This document shows, one piece after another, positions 1,307 to 22,523 of a stretch of DNA of 42,427 bases; position 1 is the stretch's first letter, and the number at the start of each line of letters is the position of its first letter. Location: positions 1-42,427 of IMG/VR virus record IMGVR_UViG_2563366875_000004. One strand, written 5' to 3'. The notes under the pieces were generated by a model. That model ran no database searches and was not told the DNA's origin. It saw nothing but the letters and a program-made list of their open reading frames with translations. The translations under genes were made by a program, and so were the position numbers. Origin of the DNA: a virus. Lineage: Duplodnaviria > Heunggongvirae > Uroviricota > Caudoviricetes.

Positions 1307-3787
1307 TTAAAAATCAACCGGATTCGGGATCAGTTTTTGTATCGTGGCTGTAACGTATTTTGCCTGGTGACGGGCATCATCCAGCGCATTGTGGCGCACG
1401 CCTTCAAATGGAATAACTGTTCTGGCATCAAAGTCGATTGTTTTTCCCAGCTCAACGATTGTGCGTACATCGCGATCGTTGTAGTAGCGCCACGGGCAGG
1501 GGATGTCCAGACGTTCGTATGAGGTGCGCAAAATTGCGTTATCGAAAGTTGCACCATTACCCCATACCTGAACGAATTTTTCATCTGAGTATTCGTTGAT
1601 GAACTCCCGAAACCGCGAAAGGGCATCCTTCAGTTTTACCTGGTCTGTTAAAATGGCAGCTCTGGCTTCACTGGACTGCTTCAGCCACCATTCGATGGTT
1701 CCACCGTCAGGAACAGCCCCTGTATTCATTGCGTCAGTCAGACTGATAACGATATAAAATACTGGCCCGATTTCCCCTGTTTGTGGGTCGAAGAAAACCG
1801 CACCAATAACCACGATGGGCGCATTGGTGTTGGTTCCCATTGTTTCAAGGTCGATCATCAGGTGGTACCACACTCTGCTGGTGGATGTGATAACGTGATG
1901 ACCGTTCACCGCAATTAAGGGATCTGCCGTCCCGCCAGTTTCATTATCGCTGGCGTGGTCCTGAGCGCTGCCAGCATTCTCCTTGTGTGGATGTTCAGCG
2001 CCTTCCATTTCCTCCGGATCATTTTCCTGAACTTCAACCTGATTCTCTTCATCGAATGTTTCCTGGTATGTTGCGTCGCCCATCACCGCGCCACAATCAG
2101 GGCAGTTGCCGCCACCGCTCTGACCGCAGGCGGTGCAGACTTTTTCCGATTCCTGTTGCGCTACTGGCTCAGGTTGTTTCGTTTCTGGCTCGTTTTGTAA
2201 CGCATTTTGGCTGTTTTGTTCCGCTTTCTGGTCGTTCTGTTCCGTTTCTTGCTGGTTCTGGTACACAGAATCGCGGGTTTCAATCCCCTTCACCCATTTC
2301 GGATCATTCGGGTCGCTAATCCCTGCAACAAATTCTCCGCGAGAGGCAGCAAGCAACTTATCGGCGTCAGGCTGGCTGATATTGGCTGCCTGCATAATTT
2401 TGTTTACTTCGTCAGCGGTAACTTTTACCGGCTCTGGTTGTGCGGTCGTGTCAGAGGCACCAGTATTTTGTTGTGAACCTGAGTACGTGCCGTTTTTACG
2501 GGCAAAATATTCTTCTTTCGTGATTTCAGTAGCCCCTGCAGCCAGCGCCTTATTCAGACCAGAAAGTTTGTTTGCACGACCATATTTTTCGCCATCCTTA
2601 TCGGTGAAGAGGAAGTAGAACGGCCCCTCACGCTCTACAGATGGTTCAGTTTCCAGCGCGCTTTCATTTTTTTTGGTATCAGATACTTCAGTTTCCACTG
2701 CATCAGTTTGTGCTGCTGACGGCTGGAGAATATCAGCAGTGTTCTGGTCTGTTTCTTCATCCTCAAACACGCCCTTTGTCGCCAGGTATTCAGTGATGTA
2801 TTTGTTCAGCGCCACGGGATCTTTGTGAATGTCGATCGGACGCTCACGGACAAGGCCAAAAATAGTCTGACGGTCGTAGCGAACGGCATCAGGTTGTTTG
2901 CGCATTGATGCGGAAATACGCTTCCAGTCTTCGCGATCTTTGTCGATAACTTCATTTTTTGCCCAGCGATGGATGCTGCCGTCAATGTTTCCGGCATTAA
3001 TATCGCCAGGCCACAGAGCGTAGGCCAGTTCTTCATCCAGCGTTTTCCATGTCTGCTTGTATTCGCGACGAATGGCGGCAGTGGCGGGGTTGATTTTTCC
3101 TGCTGAGTTTTCAGTGTGCTGCCGGTTGACTCTGGCGCGGGCAAGATCAACAACAGACGTGTATTTCCCGGTTTCTTTGCGTTCGGCTTCGCGACGTTTT
3201 TTCCAGGTGCGTAATTCTGTCTGGATCTCAGGCCATTTTGCGCCCGGCTTACATTTATGTTTAACCCACCCGATGGCGAACAGCTTTAGTTCTGAATACA
3301 TGACGTTAACTTCAGGCATTTTCATCAGTGCCTCAACGATATGCCCGTCGAATGTTGCCATGTCCTCCTGCAACAATTCCTGTGCACTAATCACCATATC
3401 AACGGTGATGTTTTCACATGTACCGAACTTAACCAGGACCGCGTTCTGTACTTCAAGGGACAGCTTGTCAAAATTGACGTTCATCGGATCGGATTCTGGT
3501 TCGACCGGAACAAAGGAAGCGGATTCCTCATCCCAGCGGTTTTCCAGCATATATTCGGTATCCCAGGAGTCGATGGCAGGGCGGGGCATGCCGGGTTTAT
3601 CCTCGCAAACAAGAAATTTATAAGCGCAGTCCTGAGCAGCCGGATATTGCTCCAGGAATTGCCAGGTAAATTTGGCTCGGGCGCGGCGTTCGTCGCCGGC
3701 TTCAATGGCAGTAGCTACAGCGACTGCACCTTCTTCCTTTATTGCCTGTTCGTCCGGAATGGCGGCGCAAATAAAGACTTTACTCAT
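1307..3787 (-). CDS. Large exonuclease-family protein (826 aa): unassigned N-terminal region, acidic/Gln-rich linker, CxxC-x7-CxxC zinc ribbon, C-terminal DnaQ-like DEDDh 3'-5' exonuclease domain
   Basis: Exo motifs visible in translation: MIDLETMG (Exo I), WGNGATFDNAIL (Exo II), HNALDDARHQA (Exo III); zinc ribbon CTACGQSGGGNCPDCG; located next to xis where lambdoid phages carry recombination genes. Confidence 0.75.
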   Translation of the reverse strand: MSKVFICAAIPDEQAIKEEGAVAVATAIEAGDERRARAKFTWQFLEQYPAAQDCAYKFLVCEDKPGMPRPAIDSWDTEYMLENRWDEESASFVPVEPESDPMNVNFDKLSLEVQNAVLVKFGTCENITVDMVISAQELLQEDMATFDGHIVEALMKMPEVNVMYSELKLFAIGWVKHKCKPGAKWPEIQTELRTWKKRREAERKETGKYTSVVDLARARVNRQHTENSAGKINPATAAIRREYKQTWKTLDEELAYALWPGDINAGNIDGSIHRWAKNEVIDKDREDWKRISASMRKQPDAVRYDRQTIFGLVRERPIDIHKDPVALNKYITEYLATKGVFEDEETDQNTADILQPSAAQTDAVETEVSDTKKNESALETEPSVEREGPFYFLFTDKDGEKYGRANKLSGLNKALAAGATEITKEEYFARKNGTYSGSQQNTGASDTTAQPEPVKVTADEVNKIMQAANISQPDADKLLAASRGEFVAGISDPNDPKWVKGIETRDSVYQNQQETEQNDQKAEQNSQNALQNEPETKQPEPVAQQESEKVCTACGQSGGGNCPDCGAVMGDATYQETFDEENQVEVQENDPEEMEGAEHPHKENAGSAQDHASDNETGGTADPLIAVNGHHVITSTSRVWYHLMIDLETMGTNTNAPIVVIGAVFFDPQTGEIGPVFYIVISLTDAMNTGAVPDGGTIEWWLKQSSEARAAILTDQVKLKDALSRFREFINEYSDEKFVQVWGNGATFDNAILRTSYERLDIPCPWRYYNDRDVRTIVELGKTIDFDARTVIPFEGVRHNALDDARHQAKYVTATIQKLIPNPVDF

Positions 3788-3867
3788 TTTGTTTTAACCT
3801 CATTACAGATTTAAGGGTGAACAAATCCCTGCCATTGCTGGCATATAAAAATGAAACCGGATATTAA

Positions 3868-4071
3868 TTACGGTGCTGTTTTAAGTCCCGCCGGGATTTC
3901 GTTATTGTCCATGTGAATAACTTTATCAACCGGATAACAGTTGCCGGGAATTTTCTGTTCCGCTGCGGCAGCCATGCATTCTTCCATTGAATCACGTATG
4001 TCAATAATAAGGTCAAGCGGCTCGCCCGTATTAAGAAAAACCGTCAGAACGAGTGCAAATGATGTATTCAT
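3868..4071 (-). CDS. Hypothetical small protein (67 aa), leftward early operon
   Basis: Internal ATG at 4069-4071 preceded by AAAGGA; ATGA overlap with stop of upstream ORF (translational coupling). Confidence 0.45.
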   Translation of the reverse strand: MNTSFALVLTVFLNTGEPLDLIIDIRDSMEECMAAAAEQKIPGNCYPVDKVIHMDNNEIPAGLKTAP

Positions 4072-4256
4072 TGCCAGTATCCTTTTTGCATCAGACGTAA
4101 ACGGGCCAGCATTGAAACAATGCATATTTGATTTAATAGCTCCCGTTCGTGTTTTCTCTTATTAATGGCATCTTCAGTAAATACAGGGTTACTGATTTTG
4201 ACACCAATTTCAAAGCAACCTTCAGACGTATTAACGTTTGGTAATAACGTTTCCAT
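4068..4256 (-). CDS. Hypothetical small protein (62 aa), leftward early operon
   Basis: ATG at 4254-4256 preceded by GAGGA at 8 nt; coupled to downstream ORF. Confidence 0.45.
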   Translation of the reverse strand: METLLPNVNTSEGCFEIGVKISNPVFTEDAINKRKHERELLNQICIVSMLARLRLMQKGYWQ

Positions 4257-4277
4257 TATCGCGTCCTCAACAATGAA

Positions 4278-4431
4278 TTTTGTGATGCGGTGCCTGGTGC
4301 CTCCAGGTGACGTTAACCAGTTAACAATTAACGCCGGATACAGAGAACCCACCCATAAGAACCAATACGGAAGTCAACTGGCCTTTTTAACTGTTCCGCG
4401 TGCGCTGAGCCGCATTCACCGCATCACAAAA
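4278..4431. repeat. Perfect 15-bp inverted repeat pair TTTTGTGATGCGGTG / CACCGCATCACAAAA separated by 124 bp
   Basis: Read directly from sequence (4278-4292 and 4417-4431); internal GTTAAC-containing sub-palindromes; lies in an ORF-free stretch. Confidence 0.6.
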
Positions 4432-4827
4432 TTCACTTTAAAAAGGGCGGACATCAGCCAGCAATGAAAACTGATGCCGCCAAAAGGTAATCAACATGGG
4501 TTGTTGCAGCGGGGTTGTCACTCAAGCGTATGGTCAACCAGACAACCCGGTGCTCCACAGGGGAGGGAGAATAGTACCCCTGCCATACTTACCGCCGCGC
4601 CATTTCGCGGATTGCCACAACCGGAAGCGTACGGTCGAATTAAATTTAACGACAAGCCTCATAGGTGAAGGCCTTCGCCGTACGCTTTCGTGTTATGCCC
4701 TGACTTTTCAGGGATATATCCTTTCAGTAAACTGTCAGTGCCGGATGCTCACCCGTGTCCGGCGCACGACCACACGTGGCAGCGTGTTGGTCTCCATTTT
4801 TAACCCAGAACCCAAATGGAGGATAAA

Positions 4828-5007
4828 ATGTCAGAACAATTTAACCCCCTGCGGAGACCTGCCTCAGCAGCACAACAAGTCGTGCTTGAAGTTGTTCGCG
4901 CGGGTAAGTTGTACGAAAAAACACAACTTTCTGAACTTTTTACACACATGCTTGACCATTACCGTGCTGAGGCGAAACGCCTGGAGCAGGAAAATAAAGC
5001 TCAATAA
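4828..5007 (+). CDS. Small hydrophilic protein (59 aa) encoded convergently to the leftward operon
   Basis: ATG at 4828 preceded by GGAGGA at optimal spacing; protein-like helical composition; strong intrinsic terminator 20 nt downstream. Confidence 0.45.
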   Translation: MSEQFNPLRRPASAAQQVVLEVVRAGKLYEKTQLSELFTHMLDHYRAEAKRLEQENKAQ

Positions 5008-5137
5008 AAGCTGCTTTAATGATCTGAGCCAGTGTGATTGCTGGCTCTTTTTGTGTTGAATCCAGGTCTGCTAATTTTTGACGAAGACAGTCTGCAGCTA
5101 TAACCTGCAAATCTGCAGGTAAATCTTTAAATTCCAT
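4940..5137 (-). CDS. Hypothetical small protein (65 aa); 3' end overlaps the plus-strand small gene and terminator antisense
   Basis: ATG at 5135-5137 preceded by GAGG; either this ORF or the convergent plus-strand ORF may be the real one in the overlap. Confidence 0.3.
   Translation of the reverse strand: MEFKDLPADLQVIAADCLRQKLADLDSTQKEPAITLAQIIKAAFIELYFPAPGVSPQHGNGQACV
5026..5052 (+). terminator. Rho-independent terminator (plus strand only)
   Basis: GAGCCAG-8 nt loop-CTGGCTC stem followed by TTTTTG; on the minus strand the hairpin is followed by no U-tract. Confidence 0.6.
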
Positions 5138-5159
5138 TATTAGCCTCGTTGGTTAGCTA

Positions 5160-5378
5160 TTAACGCGGGTATGTAATCATTCTGGCAATGCTTAATGCCG
5201 CTGCTTTTTCCAGCCTGGTTATATCTTTTTCCAGAGCGGACAGATTTTCAGCCTGCTTAGTCCTGGCTTCATTGGCCCATTTCAGATCCTGCGCTGCATT
5301 AATTTTCTGGCGCATCCACTCATAAAGTTCATCATCGGTATAGTCTGGCGCGATGATGACGGGTTCTCGTTTCTGCAT
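5160..5378 (-). CDS. Hypothetical small protein (72 aa), leftward early operon
   Basis: ATG at 5376-5378 preceded by GAGGAA. Confidence 0.5.
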   Translation of the reverse strand: MQKREPVIIAPDYTDDELYEWMRQKINAAQDLKWANEARTKQAENLSALEKDITRLEKAAALSIARMITYPR

Positions 5379-15999: not shown

Positions 16000-16545
16000 T
16001 TACTGAGTGACTTTTAGCCCACTAAATTTAAAAATATACTCTGGTTCTGTTACTTTTCCATAGAGGGTCATGCTTGATTCAAGGATGCAGTCCTTTGAAT
16101 TAGGGATAAAACGCCCTGAAAATGAAACTATATCACCAGGTTTTAATTCAGAGGCCACCGTGAAAATTTCAGAGTCAGGGCTGATAAGAGTATGATGACG
16201 AGAATCGGAAAATGCGTTATTCCAGGTTTTAACTTCAATGTCTGGTGCTATCTCCAAAGCCAACACGCCGTAACCATCACTATTGGCAGAAACAGTTTTT
16301 ACAGTACCAATCCAGTTTTTAACTTTTTTATCTTTTCTTAAGGTTGCGCAAACCGCTTTGTCTCGTTTTGCTTTTATTCCGCCCAGCTTCATGTCGTTAT
16401 CAACACCTTTAGCTGATGAAATTGCGTTTGAGACCGCCTCGATGAACTTTTCCTGCTGCTCAGGCATCTGGTAAGCAAAGGCTGGTGTCTGAAATATGGT
16501 AACCGAAAACGCTATGGTCATGATTTTTGTAAAAACACTATTCAT
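16000..16545 (-). CDS. Secreted (Sec signal peptide) protein of unknown function, 181 aa; AT-rich cargo gene
   Basis: Signal peptide MNSVFTKIMTIAFSVTIFQTPAFA with AFA cleavage motif; opposite strand to the late operon; lower GC than neighbours. Confidence 0.65.
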   Translation of the reverse strand: MNSVFTKIMTIAFSVTIFQTPAFAYQMPEQQEKFIEAVSNAISSAKGVDNDMKLGGIKAKRDKAVCATLRKDKKVKNWIGTVKTVSANSDGYGVLALEIAPDIEVKTWNNAFSDSRHHTLISPDSEIFTVASELKPGDIVSFSGRFIPNSKDCILESSMTLYGKVTEPEYIFKFSGLKVTQ

Positions 16546-16737
16546 ATTTTTCCCTAAAACAAGAAATAATGAAACAAAGAGCGCTCAAATATAAGCTTGC
16601 TTAGATTACCCATCCCTTAAACCCTTATCAACAGTATGTATTTGGGTTGTATTGTTCATCATGTGTGTTTAGGGCTTTACGATCGTAAAAAGTTGAATAT
16701 CCTGTTAAGAGTTGTTACTTCGCCACACAGCTTAAAC

Positions 16738-16759
16738 CCGCCGCCAGGCGGTTTTTTTT
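16738..16759 (+). terminator. Intrinsic terminator
   Basis: CCGCC-GCCA-GGCGG followed by T8. Confidence 0.55.
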
Positions 16760-16956
16760 GTGTCCGGAAAGTGGTGCAGTACGTTAAATGCGCATGTTGT
16801 TTTTTCTAAAATTCAGAAATAATAAAAACACATGCATATATTTACGAATATTGACATAATTTTCTATTGAAAAAAGAGCCGGCATTATTAATATCCATCT
16901 TCGGTTCCGAAGGGGATGTAAAGCGCGGTCATTTTTATTTCTCTTGAGGAACCAAT

Positions 16957-17032
<76 letters not shown>

Positions 17033-17035
17033 TAT

Positions 17036-17110
<75 letters not shown>

Positions 17111-17379
17111 GCAGAGGACGATAGATACTAGGTTGTGTTAGGCACTGACACATTTTATGTGGGGCGTTTTTCCTGACTCCTTACCTCGCCCTGTACTGTA
17201 ATGAGTGATATCGGTTGCAGCACCAGTGCCGTTTTTTACGCCACCGGAATGGTGCATTATTGGTAGAGATTTGCAATGTCTCTGGCAGGGGCCGGTGATG
17301 CATCATTCTGGTGTTGTAAATAACACCATGACATTGAGATTAATCATATATTAAGCAAAACCTGGAAACACATCCTTAA

Positions 17380-17404
17380 CCGCCTCCACCAGGCGGTTTT
17401 TTTT
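17380..17404 (+). terminator. Intrinsic terminator downstream of the tRNA pair
   Basis: CCGCCT-CCACC-AGGCGG followed by T8. Confidence 0.6.
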
Positions 17405-17731
17405 ATTCTTAATTCGAAAAAAAGAAAACACGGACACTGATAATGTCCGTGCGGCAATGCCATGTAAGTCAGCGATGAATATGGCGCAAAAAAGCGCGGC
17501 TATCGGATTAACGCCGCGGGACAAAGTCCGTGAAGAAGAATAAGTATCGATCTCCTTCCGGAGACGAGTTGATATTACTAAGCTTTAAAAATGGTTTAAA
17601 TCCTCAGATTGACCTTAATTTCCGGTAAGTCTTATTTCATTTTCTCCGCGCTACCTCCGGCGCACATCACATCAGATAACACCACACAAAAGGCATCTGC
17701 AGGTGCCTTTGACGGGGTGTTGTTTTTTTAC

Positions 17732-17754
17732 GGGCCGCTGGTGGCCCTTTTTTA
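17732..17754 (+). terminator. Intrinsic terminator immediately upstream of the holin gene
   Basis: GGGCC-GCTGGT-GGCCC followed by TTTTTTATTT; 18 nt before the holin RBS. Confidence 0.5.
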
Positions 17755-17772
17755 TTTACAGGAGAAAAAAGT

Positions 17773-18165
17773 ATGTCTGAACCCTTATCCGGTTCCGGCA
17801 CGGCTGCGGCGCTCGGCGGGGCGACGGTATTCGGGCTGTTTACCGGAACGGATTTCGGGATTGTGTTTGGTGCGTTCGCCGGGGCGTTATTTGTGGCAAC
17901 AATTCCGCAGGCGCTTTCAGCCTGGCGTGTGGCAGCGCATTTTCTGGTGTCGTTCATTATCGGCGTGCTGGGCGCAGAGGTTCTGGCATCCTGGCTGGTA
18001 AAGCATACAGAGTTTGATGGTGCACCTGTTGACGCATTGTGTGCAGTGCTGGTGTCTGTATTGTCGGTAAAAGTGCTGTCCTTTGTGCACAGGCAGGACG
18101 TTATATCACTGATGTCCTGTCTGCTCTCCCGCCTGAAGAGTGGAGGAGGCGACAATGTTAAGTAA
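17773..18165 (+). CDS. Holin-like membrane protein (130 aa)
   Basis: AGGAGAAAAAAGT RBS; multiple Gly/Ala-rich transmembrane segments; first gene of the lysis cassette. Confidence 0.6.
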   Translation: MSEPLSGSGTAAALGGATVFGLFTGTDFGIVFGAFAGALFVATIPQALSAWRVAAHFLVSFIIGVLGAEVLASWLVKHTEFDGAPVDALCAVLVSVLSVKVLSFVHRQDVISLMSCLLSRLKSGGGDNVK

Positions 18166-18430
18166 CCTTCCCGGATTGCTGAATGTGGCGTTATGCACGG
18201 TTATCGTGCTGACGCTCTTTTTTTATCGTCGCCGTGATTCCAGACATAAACCGCTGATGTCATGGCTGGCCTGGCTGCTGATGCTGCTGTATGCCTTTGC
18301 GCCCCTCAGCTATCTGTGTGGTCGCCCGTTAGCAACGGGCTGGCTGGAAGTGTTTTTTAATCTGTTGTTCTGCGTGCTGGTAATACGCGCACGCGGGAAC
18401 GTCGCAAGAATCTTTCCATTGTTGAGGTGA
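18155..18430 (+). CDS. Second lysis-cassette membrane protein (about 92 aa)
   Basis: ATG after GGAGGAGG; hydrophobic segments LLNVALCTVIVLTLFFY and LAWLLMLLYAFAPL. Confidence 0.5.
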   Translation: MLSNLPGLLNVALCTVIVLTLFFYRRRDSRHKPLMSWLAWLLMLLYAFAPLSYLCGRPLATGWLEVFFNLLFCVLVIRARGNVARIFPLLR

Positions 18431-18810
18431 ATATGTCGGGTAAATTCAGATTCAGCCGTCGCAGTGAAAAAAATCTGGAGGGCGTCAAACCACAGCTGGC
18501 TGCTGTCGTTCGCCGTGCCCTTGAGCTGACGGAGGTTGATTTCGGTATTACGGAAGGCCTGCGCAGTAAGTATCGCCAGAAACAGCTGGTCGCGGAAGGG
18601 AAAAGCCAGACTATGAACAGCCGCCACCTGACCGGTGATGCGGTGGATGTTGTGGCCTACATTGGCAGCCAGGTGTCATGGGACTGGCCTCTGTACGAGA
18701 AAATCGCGCAGGCATTTAAGCAGGCTGCCGCAGAGCTGGGAACTGCCATCGAATGGGGCGGGGACTGGAAAACACTGAAAGACGGGCCTCACTTTCAGTT
18801 GAAACGCTGA
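18427..18810 (+). CDS. Endolysin, peptidase M15 (VanY-like) family
   Basis: Motifs SRHLTGDAVD and WGGDW...GPHF typical of M15 zinc peptidase endolysins; ATG at 18427 or 18433. Confidence 0.75.
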   Translation: MNMSGKFRFSRRSEKNLEGVKPQLAAVVRRALELTEVDFGITEGLRSKYRQKQLVAEGKSQTMNSRHLTGDAVDVVAYIGSQVSWDWPLYEKIAQAFKQAAAELGTAIEWGGDWKTLKDGPHFQLKR

Positions 18811-18824
18811 TAACCAGGTGTGTT

Positions 18825-19007
18825 ATGAGCAGAAAACACTGGACACACAGAATGCCGCGAACGGCGGCGAAATGGGCACTGGTAGCGATACTGGTGCCTT
18901 TTTTATTGGTGGGATGCGTCAGCCTGGATAAGGCGCGCCAGCTTTTCGATACGGCTTCTCAGGTCTGCCAGCTTATCGATGGCGTTCGGCAGTGTCTGCA
19001 GAACTGA
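18825..19007 (+). CDS. Small lipoprotein (60 aa), o-spanin-like
   Basis: Lipobox LLVGC after a signal sequence; directly after the endolysin; no i-spanin ORF identified. Confidence 0.45.
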   Translation: MSRKHWTHRMPRTAAKWALVAILVPFLLVGCVSLDKARQLFDTASQVCQLIDGVRQCLQN

Positions 19008-19178
19008 TCACCTGTAATAGCAGAATATTTTGCTGAAAAATGAAGGGTGCGCCAGCGTCCGGAAAGCATGAAATTCTGTGTTAGTGGCTATTCAATAAAA
19101 TAAATTCTTTCTGTCGCCGCGAATACTCAAATGTTGATCAGTGCCCGGTGCGGCGACGGGCTTCGATATCAGGAGACG

Positions 19179-19478
19179 ATGATGGAAAAAACAGAAAACA
19201 AACCGATTGTAATTGGTGCTGATGCTGCTCCGTTTAAGTTTGAGTTGTCTCAACTGGTGGAGATGCGCATCAGTGATGAATGGGGTGAGGTTAAAGCCCG
19301 TGCGCAGTATGCGGATGGCGAAAACCAGTACTTGATCCACTACAAGGCAGCTGACGGTCGCGCCACGACGGAGTGGTTTGGTGAGTCAATGCTGGAAGCA
19401 ACAGAAGATGATCGTCATCCAGGTTGCCCGGTATTTGCTGGTATGGAATTACCGGAAGGTGCAGTCGTTACTGAGTAA
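19179..19478 (+). CDS. Hypothetical protein (99 aa)
   Basis: AGGAGACG RBS before ATGATG; acidic soluble protein. Confidence 0.5.
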   Translation: MMEKTENKPIVIGADAAPFKFELSQLVEMRISDEWGEVKARAQYADGENQYLIHYKAADGRATTEWFGESMLEATEDDRHPGCPVFAGMELPEGAVVTE

Positions 19479-19523
19479 CAGGCATTACAGCAGCCCTTCT
19501 GTGTGAGGGGCTGCGATAATGCT

Positions 19524-19724
19524 TTAGTTGTCTTTCATAAATCCTTTAATTGCCCATCCCACAAGCCTGGTGATGCTGTATATCAACAAGGCACATATCA
19601 GGGAAACAAGGATATCAAACAGTGAAAATCCCCGAGCCTCTGTTGATAAAAGGCCGAAAATGAACACCAGAATAGCTAACAGAATTCCTACCCGGTGAAA
19701 ACCTTTAGAAATCGTGTTTTTCAT
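19524..19724 (-). CDS. Small two-helix membrane protein (66 aa), opposite strand
   Basis: GGAGGA RBS 4 nt before ATG; two hydrophobic helices; same position as the lambda bor-type lysogenic-conversion gene. Confidence 0.5.
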   Translation of the reverse strand: MKNTISKGFHRVGILLAILVFIFGLLSTEARGFSLFDILVSLICALLIYSITRLVGWAIKGFMKDN

Positions 19725-19784
19725 TTGTCCTCCGTATTGGTTTTTTAAAGGGTGGAAATTTTAACATCAGAAGAGTGAAGTTCT

Positions 19785-20135
19785 ATGCCATCACGAATCC
19801 CCCGCGCATGCCGTAAACGTGGATGTGCAGGTACAACCACAGACAGTTCTGGTTACTGCGATAAACATCGCGGTGAAGGCTGGGTGCAGCACCAGCGCGG
19901 ACTGAGCCGCCACCAGCGCGGCTATGGCTCAAAATGGACGGTGATTCGTGCCCGTATTCTGAAGCGCGATAAAGGTCTGTGTCAGTTGTGTCTGCGTGTC
20001 GGTGTGGTGAGCGAGGCGAAAACCGTCGACCACATCATCCCGAAAGCGCATGGCGGAACAGACGCAGACAGCAACCTGCAGAGTCTGTGCTGGCCTTGCC
20101 ATAAAGAGAAAACAGCGCGCGAACGTATCAACTGA
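19785..20135 (+). CDS. HNH endonuclease (terminase-associated)
   Basis: C-x-x-C...H-x-x-x-H pattern (CQLCLR...VDHIIPKAHGGTDADSNLQSLCWPCH); immediately upstream of the terminase genes. Confidence 0.8.
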   Translation: MPSRIPRACRKRGCAGTTTDSSGYCDKHRGEGWVQHQRGLSRHQRGYGSKWTVIRARILKRDKGLCQLCLRVGVVSEAKTVDHIIPKAHGGTDADSNLQSLCWPCHKEKTARERIN

Positions 20136-20283
20136 TAACTGTTCTCGTCTGTAAGGGAGGGGCGGGTAAAATCTCTGTAACCCTGGGCGTTCGGGACCGC
20201 CCGCCAACCCTTCTTCGCATCGCCGCAGGTTCGAAAACTTTTTTTTGGGAATGTGATTAAACGATTGATAGGTAAAACCGATT

Positions 20284-20766
20284 ATGTCAGGACCCCCGAA
20301 AACCCCGCCACGCCTGCATTTGATACGAGGCAACCCCTCAAAGCGCCCCGTTAAAGACTCCAAAAAAACCGCTAAAAAGGACGAAAAAGGTCTCCCTAAA
20401 ATTCCGCAGCATTTAGGGGCGCAGGGGAAGTACTGGTTCAGGCGAATGGCGGAAGAGCTGAATGCGGAAGGGATCATTTCTCAGCTTGATGCGCGTGCAC
20501 TTGAGTTACTGGTGGAAGCCTACACCGAATACCGGCATCACTGCGAAACACTCGATGTTGAGGGGTATACCTACCGCACGGAAACGCAGAATGGCGATGT
20601 GATGATCAAGGCACATCCGGCTGCGGCGATGAAGGCGGATGCCTGGAAGCGGATCCGGGCGATGCTTGCAGAGTTTGGTATGTCACCGGCAAGCCGGGCG
20701 AAAGTAAATATCGCCGGACCGGATGATGTTGATCCGCTGGCAGAGCTTTTAAAAGCGAGAGACTGA
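20284..20766 (+). CDS. Terminase small subunit (P27-family-like)
   Basis: Basic N-terminus, helical core, ends 1 nt overlapping the large-subunit ATG. Confidence 0.65.
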   Translation: MSGPPKTPPRLHLIRGNPSKRPVKDSKKTAKKDEKGLPKIPQHLGAQGKYWFRRMAEELNAEGIISQLDARALELLVEAYTEYRHHCETLDVEGYTYRTETQNGDVMIKAHPAAAMKADAWKRIRAMLAEFGMSPASRAKVNIAGPDDVDPLAELLKARD

Positions 20767-22523
20767 TGGCAAAAGTGGCTGACGGGATCCGCTACGCCGA
20801 ACGTGTTGTTGCAGGAGAAATTGTCGCTGGCGAATTTGTCCGTCTGGCCTGCCAGCGTTTTCTTGATGATCTGAAGTACGGCGAAGAGCGGGGGATTTAT
20901 TTCAGTGAACCCCGTGCGCAGCACATCCTGAATTTCTACAAATTTGTGCCCCATGTAAAAGGGGCGCTGGCAGGTCAGCCCATTGAACTGATGGACTGGC
21001 ATGTTTTTATCCTCATTAATATTTTTGGTTTTGTCATTCCGCTGGTGAATGAAGAGACCGGGGAAGTTGTCATGCGCAGCGATGGCAGCGGACGCCCGGT
21101 GATGGTGCGCCGGTTCCGGACAGCGTACAACGAAGTCGCCCGTAAAAACGCAAAATCAACCCTGTCATCGGGTATCGGTCTGTATATGACGGGGGCAGAT
21201 GGTGAAGGCGGGGCTGAGGTGTATTCAGCCGCAACCACGCGTGACCAGGCCAGAATTGTGTTTGAAGACGCCAAAAATATGGTCAGGAAAGCCCGGTCGA
21301 CACTCGGGCGGTTGTTTGATTTCAACAAGCTGGCGATTTACCAGGAGCAGAGCGCATCAAAATTTGAACCGCTTTCCTCGGATGCAAACAACCTGGACGG
21401 TCTGAACATCCACTGCGCCATTATTGATGAGCTGCATGCACATAAAACCCGCGACGTGTGGGACGTTCTGGAAACGGCAACCGGTGCCCGTCTGCAGTCC
21501 CTGTTATTTGGTATCACCACGGCGGGCTTTAACAAGGAAGGGATTTGTTACGAGCAACGCGATTACGCCATCAAGGTATTGCGAGGCTATAACAGCGACG
21601 TGGAGGGCGCGGTAAAAGACGACTCCTACTTTGCGATTATTTACACGCTCGATGAGGGAGATGATCCGTTTGATGAAACGGTCTGGCAGAAAGCGAATCC
21701 GGGCCTGGGCATCTGTAAACGCTGGGATGATCTGCGTCGTCTGGCGAAAAAAGCGAAGGAACAGGTTTCAGCGCGGGTGAATTTTTTTACCAAACACATG
21801 AATGTGTGGGTCACTGCCGAGTCTGCCTGGATGGATATGATTAAGTGGGAGAAGTGTGAATACATCGCTCCACAGCATGAGCTGAAAACATATCCCATGT
21901 GGGTCGGCGTCGACCTTGCTCATAAGATTGATATCTGTGCGGCGGCAAAACTCTGGCGAACGGATAACGGGCATGTTCATGCCGATTTTAAATTCTGGCT
22001 TCCGGAAGGACGGCTGGAACGATGCTCACGGCAGCAGGCAGAACTTTACCGGAAGTGGGCGGAGATGGATAAGCTCATCCTGACGGATGGTGATGTTATC
22101 GATCATACTCAGATAAAAAGTGACCTGCTGGAATGGATTGGCGGTGAAAACCTGAGGGAACTGGGATTTGACCCGTGGAGCGCAATGCAGTTCAGTCTGG
22201 CGCTGGCTGAAGAAGGTATACCGCTGGTGGAAGTTCCGCAGACGGTCCGCAATCTGTCAGAGGCCATGAAGGAAACGGAATCACTGGTCTATGCCGGACG
22301 TTTCCACCACAGCAATCACCCGGTCATGAACTGGATGATGTCTAACGTTACGGTGAAACCGGACAAAAACAACAATATCTTCCCGAATAAATCCACGCCG
22401 GAAGCCAAAATCGACGGCCCTGTGGCGATGTTTACAGCAATGAGCCGGATGCTGGTCAATGGCGGTGAACCGGAGCCGGATCTGTCTGAGCATCTGGTCA
22501 GCGTTGGTATTCGCTCGCTTTAA
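20766..22523 (+). CDS. Terminase large subunit
   Basis: 585 aa; ATPase and nuclease regions ([15 protein letters not shown]); canonical position. Confidence 0.9.

Follow-up and report, generated by a model that had tools for sequence, protein, structure and literature searches.

The DNA considered here is a stretch of 42,427 nucleotides (nt) from a tailed virus of the Caudoviricetes (IMG/VR record IMGVR_UViG_2563366875_000004), referred to below as the window, and its positions 17773-19007 hold four co-oriented genes on the (+) strand, namely two genes of the holin family, a gene for an M15 endopeptidase and a gene for a prolipoprotein of 60 amino acids (aa), tightly packed in an operon-like manner. 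The sequence indicates that the holins and the endolysin of this cassette form an ordinary module and that its last gene encodes a conserved, partnerless lipoprotein lying outside the known outer-membrane-disruption families. The reading that we favour, with a probability of about 55%, is that this stand-alone outer-membrane lipoprotein fills the spanin slot and disrupts the outer membrane without a dedicated phage i-spanin, by a mechanism that we infer. The cassette region is approximately 94% identical to the Stx2e-converting phage phiP27 and 92-96% identical to prophages in many Escherichia coli genomes, and it is best explained as the complete late lysis cassette of a phiP27-like temperate phage. 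The original prediction, made from the letters of this stretch, had named a holin-like gene, a second multi-transmembrane protein, a VanY/M15 endolysin and a 60-aa lipoprotein; all four are present within these limits, with family matches far beyond chance (Table 1).

The precursor of the lipoprotein begins with a long and basic n-region (residues 1-16, containing five Lys or Arg residues and two His residues), followed by a hydrophobic core of 14 residues and the lipobox L-V-G-C31, with the codon of Cys31 at 18915-18917. These features fit a predicted bacterial lipoprotein, that is, a substrate of Lgt, Lsp and Lnt. In a hydropathy scan with a 19-residue window, the only hydrophobic segment of the protein is residues 14-32, the signal peptide; a C-terminal transmembrane (TM) segment is found neither here nor among the approximately 140 homologues listed, and their C-termini are polar. 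The protein thus lacks the C-terminal TM segment of unimolecular spanins, as had been predicted, and the same scan gives three to four segments in the first holin-family protein and three in the second, so the predicted arrangement of membrane proteins, endolysin and lipoprotein holds as a whole. According to the Lol rule of E. coli, the residue at position +2 decides the sorting of lipoproteins, and residues other than Asp lead to the outer membrane. The +2 residue here is Val, so outer-membrane sorting is predicted, and Asp occurs at +2 in none of the listed family members with an intact lipobox. The mature part comprises 30 aa (18915-19004) and carries Cys48 (18966-18968) and Cys57 (18993-18995). 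The 29 residues after the lipid-bearing Cys31 are predicted to be helical, and AlphaFold2 returns one helix over residues 12-59, at a mean predicted local distance difference test (pLDDT) score of only 67, which is low confidence. The two cysteines are invariant and spaced 8-9 residues apart, a distance too large for a disulfide within one continuous helix, which suggests inter-chain bonds or a hairpin.

The absence of a partner was assessed by listing open reading frames (ORFs) of at least 25 aa with ATG, GTG or TTG starts in all six frames of 16500-20500, and then by scanning the entire window in six frames with all internal starts allowed. Neither scan gave a credible type II membrane protein, as expected of an i-spanin, and alternative frames and non-ATG starts yielded no i-spanin ORF; the statement in the original prediction that no Rz-like type II membrane protein is present therefore stands. 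A few ORFs with one N-terminal hydrophobic segment do occur, away from the lysis genes; either they are read out of frame or internally in large genes, or they are at a great distance from the cassette. Only one ORF in the window has a lipobox, the gene at 18825-19007. With a single lipobox ORF and no type II membrane ORF, any spanin-like function must involve this lipoprotein alone. Similarly, no conserved i-spanin was found among the 89 related loci described below. Literature searches on orphan o-spanins and on stable signal peptides yielded nothing useful.

The sole significant family of the lipoprotein is phrog_7528 (E 3.4e-37), which has no assigned function; no model of Pfam, NCBIfam or the defence-system collection PADLOC matches it. 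A word-indexed search retrieved 158 clusters, all from Enterobacteriaceae or Yersinia, and the 120 of them that were listed show 70-98% identity to the query and have a core of 60 residues in common, except where start calls differ and in a few entries that are truncated or extended. When 1.84 billion representatives were searched exhaustively with a profile, only 21 hits were obtained, of which a handful of distant members were new. These form a second subfamily with 35-47% identity and the pattern '...LLVGC..EKARNWFGVAADVCDxVxKIKxRC'. In an alignment of 13 sequences, Met1, two leucines of the h-region, G30-C31, Cys48 and Cys57 are invariant across both subfamilies, and within the main subfamily the conservation of the signal peptide, with its n-region motif R-x-H-W-T-H-R-x-P, equals that of the mature part. 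The ORF is intact and of equal length in 55 of 57 distinct sequences. The ratio of nonsynonymous to synonymous substitution rates (dN/dS) in these 55 distinct genes is 0.23 for codons 2-31 and 0.18 for codons 32-60, at a synonymous divergence pS of 0.17-0.24. The lipoprotein gene is a real protein-coding gene under purifying selection over its whole length. It is also widespread, being carried by 357 of 5426 complete E. coli genomes at 555 places, with up to eight copies per genome and 100% identity in E. coli SE11; it occurs in prophages of Escherichia, Salmonella, Citrobacter, Cronobacter and Yersinia and in the Stx2e phage phiP27.

The genomic context was compared in 89 loci, from Escherichia, Salmonella, Citrobacter and Yersinia hosts, where both the lipoprotein gene and the endolysin gene could be located. 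The lipoprotein gene lies 3' of the endolysin gene in all 89. Around this fixed order the neighbours vary: the endolysin is either M15 or GH108 with a PG_binding_3 domain, the holins are either Phage_holin_8 plus Phage_holin_3_7 or the lambda-S-like Phage_holin_3_1, and the packaging module downstream is either HNH with P27-type TerS or of the Nu1/A type. In 41 of the 89 loci, the window included, the lipoprotein gene starts 14 nt after the endolysin stop codon, while in Yersinia it overlaps the stop of a GH108 endolysin gene by 4 nt. At the junction of the two genes, an insertion hot spot, the other loci carry 250-1070 bp of inserted DNA. The possibility that distant relatives adjoin an Rz gene was rejected, as the same partnerless arrangement was found: in the distant subfamily, the lipoprotein gene directly follows holin_3_1 and an M15 endolysin, with no Rz-like gene. 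The 80 loci in IMG/VR with the nearest M15 endolysins all carry the lipoprotein gene and are therefore uninformative as a contrast, which was taken instead from Salmonella phage Solent; its endolysin is 70% identical, it has no phrog_7528 lipoprotein, and its distal slot holds an annotated i-spanin and o-spanin. The distal position is likewise occupied by Rz/Rz1 in the ChiX and PepB cassettes (PMC10847048).

The cargo of the junction inserts, which occur in L007, L008, L011, L024, L053, L058, L072 and others, includes a KilA-N protein, an HNH-like protein, a 93-aa phrog_33497 protein and a phrog_36812 protein. The inserts often contain very small single-TM genes as well, of phrog_4493, phrog_1115 and phrog_4906 or encoding a 65-aa protein with a C-terminal TM segment, which end 2-5 nt 5' of the lipoprotein start or overlap it. 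Having almost no extramembrane domain, these small TM proteins are unlike i-spanins; they could have an accessory part in lysis. The window has none of them, and where the lipoprotein gene directly abuts the endolysin gene (26 distinct genes) its dN/dS is still 0.18, which indicates that the lipoprotein is maintained without them. In loci of the L008 type, one of the small-TM genes is fused in frame with the lipoprotein (P0018, 89 aa). A further junction was seen in phage SerU-LTIIb (L012, KU052038, region 3286-5257), where LT-IIb enterotoxin genes follow a related holin1-holin2-endolysin cassette in which no homologue of the lipoprotein could be detected; this distal junction is evidently a site where toxin genes insert too.

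It has been reported that phiP27 has a 'separated' two-component spanin, the shortest known, with 62 periplasmic residues in total (Kongari et al. 2018, PMC6139136). According to the supplement of that paper, the i-spanin lies at 20348-20542 and the o-spanin at 20706-20861, the latter with a periplasmic part of 30 aa that is 83% helical. This o-spanin is the homologue of the window lipoprotein. Its catalogued start is the internal Met10, which gives 51 aa; since Met10 is Thr, Ile or Val in many homologues, the correct, conserved start gives 60 aa. The catalogued i-spanin corresponds to a 64-codon ORF with a TTG start (4287-4481 (+) of L001, NC_003356) in an insert of about 470 bp between endolysin and lipoprotein genes. 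This insert is not in the window, and the ORF is restricted to phiP27-identical loci, matches no PHROG family and runs antisense to a 90-aa phrog_36812 ORF (L001 4271-4543 (-)); another locus conserves this phrog_36812 ORF at 46% identity and does not keep the sense ORF, the i-spanin. On these grounds the published i-spanin was rejected as a partner of the window lipoprotein; it is probably not a gene, and the catalogue entry is probably wrong. In a survey of 279 Stx phages, Pinto et al. 2021 (PMC8136144) detected the Rz i-spanin family in 277 and, separately, described a cluster whose members, exactly two Stx2e phages, have a metallopeptidase endolysin; one of the two came, like phiP27, from a human in Germany. 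Because the counts match (279 - 277), these two are likely to be the Stx phages without Rz, an identification that is ours and is not stated in PMC8136144.

The lipoprotein resembles several known systems in part and belongs to none of them. It has the lipobox without Asp at +2 that is expected of an o-spanin in a two-component spanin. An i-spanin was found neither in the six-frame scan of the window nor in the 89 related loci, however, and 30 mature residues fall short of the length that bridges the periplasm. With Rz/Rz1 of lambda it shares the character of a small outer-membrane lipoprotein, the distal place in a holin-endolysin cassette and periplasmic cysteines available for disulfides, but mature Rz1 has 40 residues and is proline-rich and unstructured, whereas the 30 residues here contain no proline and are predicted to form a helix. 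No significant sequence similarity to any spanin family was found; the 'Rz-like spanin' PHROGs are matched only at E of 0.0075 or above, by one or two of the 13 members per family. Like the unimolecular spanin gp11 of T1, it is the product of one gene with an N-terminal lipoprotein signal in the spanin slot; unlike it, phrog_7528 members have no C-terminal TM segment and a far shorter mature domain, so they cannot anchor in both membranes. The disruptin gp28 of coliphage phiKT (10.1101/515445) is also a single small, helical, amphipathic polypeptide in place of a spanin, but gp28 is cationic and cytosolic, with neither signal sequence nor lipobox, whereas the window protein is a neutral to acidic secreted lipoprotein. 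A cationic antimicrobial-peptide mechanism of the disruptin kind was rejected because of the charge of the mature domain (0 to -3).

The likeness to the colicin lysis proteins, which permeabilise the envelope with activation of phospholipase A (PMC9517006), is striking and lies in size, lipobox and gene position. Their precursors have 45-52 aa, against 60 aa here, and their lipidated mature peptides about 27-33 residues, against 30; the ColE1 lysis protein has the identical lipobox LLVGC. As with the window gene, the genes of colicin lysis proteins come last in a damage-inducible operon. The colicin lysis peptides are Gly/Ser-rich and without the two cysteines, while the window protein has a domain predicted to be helical in which two cysteines are invariant, and its basic n-region is much longer. 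When aligned by hhalign with six verified colicin lysis proteins (five annotated plasmid genes and ColE1, the sequence used for which is matched at 99% identity or more by 90 plasmid records), just 17 columns could be aligned, covering the signal peptide and lipobox. The Pfam family Lysis_col (PF02402) does not match the window protein and reaches E 0.072 in one of 13 relatives. Homology with the colicin lysis proteins was therefore rejected as a matter of membership, and the functional analogy was kept. In addition, the holin and M15 layout recalls the Type 10 secretion or lysis cassettes, Serratia ChiWXYZ and Yersinia entomophaga HolA-PepB-Rz-Rz1, and ChiX is a close relative of the endolysin (5OPZ, 3e-42), but those cassettes end with Rz/Rz1 (PMC10847048) and that of the window with a lone lipoprotein. 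Judged by its sequence, the lipoprotein is outside the Rz1, u-spanin, disruptin and colicin-lysis-protein families.

On the favoured reading, that of a stand-alone outer-membrane lipoprotein, the prolipoprotein would be exported by Sec, lipidated and cleaved at Cys31, and delivered by Lol to the inner leaflet of the outer membrane, where it would display a 29-residue amphipathic helix past the lipid-bearing cysteine; with the invariant Cys48 and Cys57 on this helix, disulfides could form. Placed in the slot given to Rz/Rz1 in related cassettes, it would supply the third step of lysis alone once the wall has been degraded. Two speculative modes of action can be envisaged. In one, after the endolysin has removed the wall, turgor would press the inner membrane onto the outer membrane and the tethered helix would destabilise or fuse them; in the other, as with the colicin lysis proteins, the lipid asymmetry of the outer membrane would be perturbed and the phospholipase PldA activated. 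The long conserved signal peptide may, speculatively, contribute to lysis as well. Tentatively, at somewhat less than an even chance, the phrog_7528 lipoprotein may even represent a further, undescribed class of phage outer-membrane-disruption protein, in which a free-standing lipoprotein with a disulfide-capable 29-residue helix suffices after wall loss. Several observations weigh against the favoured reading. A mature domain of 30 residues cannot span the periplasm; its amphipathicity is moderate, with a hydrophobic moment of 0.55 that 60 of 2000 shuffles equalled; its net charge is 0 and ranges from 0 to -3 in relatives, so it is neutral to acidic; and the structure model is weak, as given above. 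About half of the related loci have small membrane-protein genes between endolysin and lipoprotein, which might be partners lost here. It has also been reported that approximately 15% of phages of Gram-negative hosts have no recognisable spanin (10.1101/515445), so a phage without a spanin is possible and the lipoprotein could do something else. The suggestion in the original prediction that outer-membrane disruption may work differently here nevertheless fits all of the evidence and is supported.

The protein could instead be a true o-spanin with an unrecognised inner-membrane partner, namely a holin-family protein, a small membrane protein encoded elsewhere or a host protein. Its filing as an o-spanin in phiP27 by Kongari et al. 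2018 (PMC6139136) agrees with this, as does its likeness to Rz1 in small size, in being an outer-membrane lipoprotein, in its periplasmic cysteines and in its place as the last product of a lysis cassette. The overlap or abutment of the small single-TM genes (phrog_4493, phrog_1115, phrog_4906 and the 65-aa protein) with the lipoprotein start in about half of the related loci also speaks for it, and so do marginal matches of a few distant members to 'Rz-like spanin' PHROGs (E 0.0075-0.015). No candidate partner, however, is common to all contexts, as holin, endolysin and packaging types all vary, and the small TM genes, whose products have almost nothing outside the membrane, are missing from the window and from 41 of the 89 loci, where selection is equal (dN/dS 0.18). 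The marginal PHROG matches fall on the stretch of signal peptide and lipobox. The published phiP27 i-spanin, besides being antisense to a conserved gene and without a family, occurs in phiP27-identical loci only, and 30 residues are too few for half of a bridge across the periplasm. We regard such a partnership as quite unlikely.

It is unlikely, too, that the lipoprotein is no outer-membrane disruptor at all and serves in lysis timing or regulation, or in lysogenic conversion or superinfection exclusion as do Bor, Cor and Llp, the phage being effectively spaninless. Small phage lipoproteins with roles other than lysis do exist, such as lambda Bor, T5 Llp and phi80 Cor, but genes of the Cor and Llp type normally adjoin tail or receptor-binding genes rather than lysis cassettes. 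The junction is a hot spot for accessory genes, with its inserts of 250-1070 bp (KilA-N, HNH-like), toxin genes adjoin these cassettes, and a terminator-like hairpin lies inside the lipoprotein gene; spaninless phages, as noted, are known (10.1101/515445). Against these points, the promoter scan gives the lipoprotein gene no promoter of its own, the gene is closely tied to that of the endolysin, with a gap of 14 nt or an overlap of 4 nt, defence-system models do not match it, and it is always found with holin-endolysin modules across unrelated phage backbones and never elsewhere. The hairpin could also mean that the ORF is non-functional, a by-product of a conserved terminator and the sequence next to it, because the element and its U-run (18874-18909) are nearly invariant and their translation is the hydrophobic core and lipobox region. 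This is highly improbable: a Shine-Dalgarno sequence precedes the ORF, which is intact and unchanged in length in 55 of 57 distinct sequences; synonymous changes are many, and dN/dS is about 0.2 over the mature part, which lies beyond the hairpin, as well as over the first half; and Cys48 and Cys57 are invariant even at 35-47% identity.

The hairpin itself resembles an intrinsic terminator, and its three G-U pairs mean that it is formed on the sense RNA only. The 26-nt stem-loop is nearly invariant at the nucleotide level across the loci, and the few changes in the stem mostly preserve pairing. It is retained in most of the distant relatives (e.g., L101 and L104), whose mature peptides have diverged; in L007 it is weaker, and in L102 its position is shifted. 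When the peptide was recoded synonymously, just 1.4-2% of trials reached its stability. The hairpin may explain part of the unusual conservation of the h-region, though not that of the n-region.

Table 1. Lysis genes and associated signals in the window, with the evidence for each
Feature	Position	Strand	Evidence or remarks
Terminator-like GC-rich hairpin and T-run, GGGCCGCTGGTGGCCC TTTTTTATTT	17732-17757	+	16 nt 5' of holin gene 1
Holin-family membrane protein, 130 aa	17773-18165	+	Pfam Phage_holin_8, E 3.4e-22; phrog_198 'holin', E 2.6e-40; 3-4 hydrophobic segments
Second holin-family membrane protein, 91 aa	18155-18430	+	Pfam Phage_holin_3_7, E 1.3e-22; phrog_217 'holin', E 6.2e-39; 3 hydrophobic segments
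Soluble M15 (VanY/LAS-type) L-alanyl-D-glutamate endopeptidase, 125 aa	18433-18810	+	Pfam Peptidase_M15_4, E 1.5e-12; phrog_465 'endolysin', E 3.2e-74
Shine-Dalgarno-like AGGTG	18816-18820	+	5 nt 3' of endolysin stop, 4 nt 5' of lipoprotein ATG
Predicted 60-aa prolipoprotein (phrog_7528), last gene of the cassette, MSRKHWTHRMPRTAAKWALVAILVPFLLVG / CVSLDKARQLFDTASQVCQLIDGVRQCLQN	18825-19007	+	phrog_7528, E 3.4e-37; lipobox; selection
RNA hairpin of 11 bp (3 G-U pairs) and U-run, -15.6 kcal/mol	18874-18909	+	Terminator scan; within signal-peptide codons W17-G30

As shown in Table 1, the first two products are holin-family membrane proteins by profile match, with a putative hole-forming role, one of them being perhaps the holin and the other a partner or antiholin; both pass the curated cut-offs (79.3 bits against 26.4 for Phage_holin_8 and 80.0 bits against 25.4 for Phage_holin_3_7), and the same 276-nt second holin gene is called by PGAP in E. 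coli A8. The third is, by profile match and close solved relatives, an M15 L-alanyl-D-glutamate endopeptidase endolysin. Its Peptidase_M15_4 match exceeds the Pfam cut-off, its relatives in the PDB are 23RI (5e-43), 8Q2G (2e-42; annotated 'peptidoglycan L-alanyl-D-glutamate endopeptidase'), ChiX 5OPZ (3e-42) and the T5 endolysin 2MXZ (1e-23), and the motifs SRH65LTGDAVD72 and GPHFQ are present in its sequence. The hydropathy scan of the endolysin finds no hydrophobic segment and hence no signal or signal-arrest-release segment, so it is expected to be holin-dependent.

The two holin genes overlap by 11 nt, the gap between the second of them and the endolysin gene is 2 nt, and the 14-nt gap between the endolysin stop codon and the lipoprotein gene contains the AGGTG Shine-Dalgarno sequence. 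The promoter scan found no sigma-70-like promoter between the holin genes and the lipoprotein gene, which indicates that the lipoprotein gene shares its transcript with the lysis genes. In relatives, a gene for the antiterminator Q is found upstream. Another strong terminator-like hairpin with a T-run occurs at 17378-17408 (+) and, like the one at 17732-17757, it stands between the transfer RNA (tRNA) genes and holin gene 1; by analogy with the organisation of lambdoid late operons, both are probably read through by Q-modified polymerase in late transcription. Upstream of the cassette, the window has tRNA-Thr(TGT) and tRNA-Gly(TCC) at 16957-17110 (+) and no stx genes, whereas phiP27 has tRNA-Ile, tRNA-Arg and stx2eAB at the corresponding place 5' of the holin.

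Some neighbouring ORFs were also noted. Just upstream of the tRNA genes, 16000-16545 (-) encodes 181 aa with an apparent N-terminal signal peptide and may be an accessory gene. At a fixed distance 3' of the lipoprotein gene is a 98-aa gene of phrog_1935 without a TM segment (19182-19478 (+)); in many loci a longer ORF of it starts 306 nt after the lipoprotein start, whichever packaging module comes next, and the gene seems to travel with the lysis cassette. Between it and the HNH endonuclease gene lies a 66-aa ORF with two TM segments (19524-19724 (-)) that matches no family and is annotated in E. coli A8 and absent from phiP27.

Breaching the outer membrane comes last among the steps of phage lysis in Gram-negative bacteria and is the least understood of them. 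To our knowledge, only three solutions to it have been described, namely the two-component spanins, the unimolecular spanins and the disruptin of phiKT. With a lipoprotein that is tiny, well defined and very common, the phrog_7528 cassette presents a candidate for a fourth. The finding also bears on the catalogue of spanins, in which the 'shortest two-component spanin', that of phiP27 (PMC6139136), rests on an ORF that is probably not a gene. Stx is released after phage lysis, so the way in which phiP27-type phages complete their lysis also matters for the release of toxin by porcine Shiga toxin-producing E. coli.

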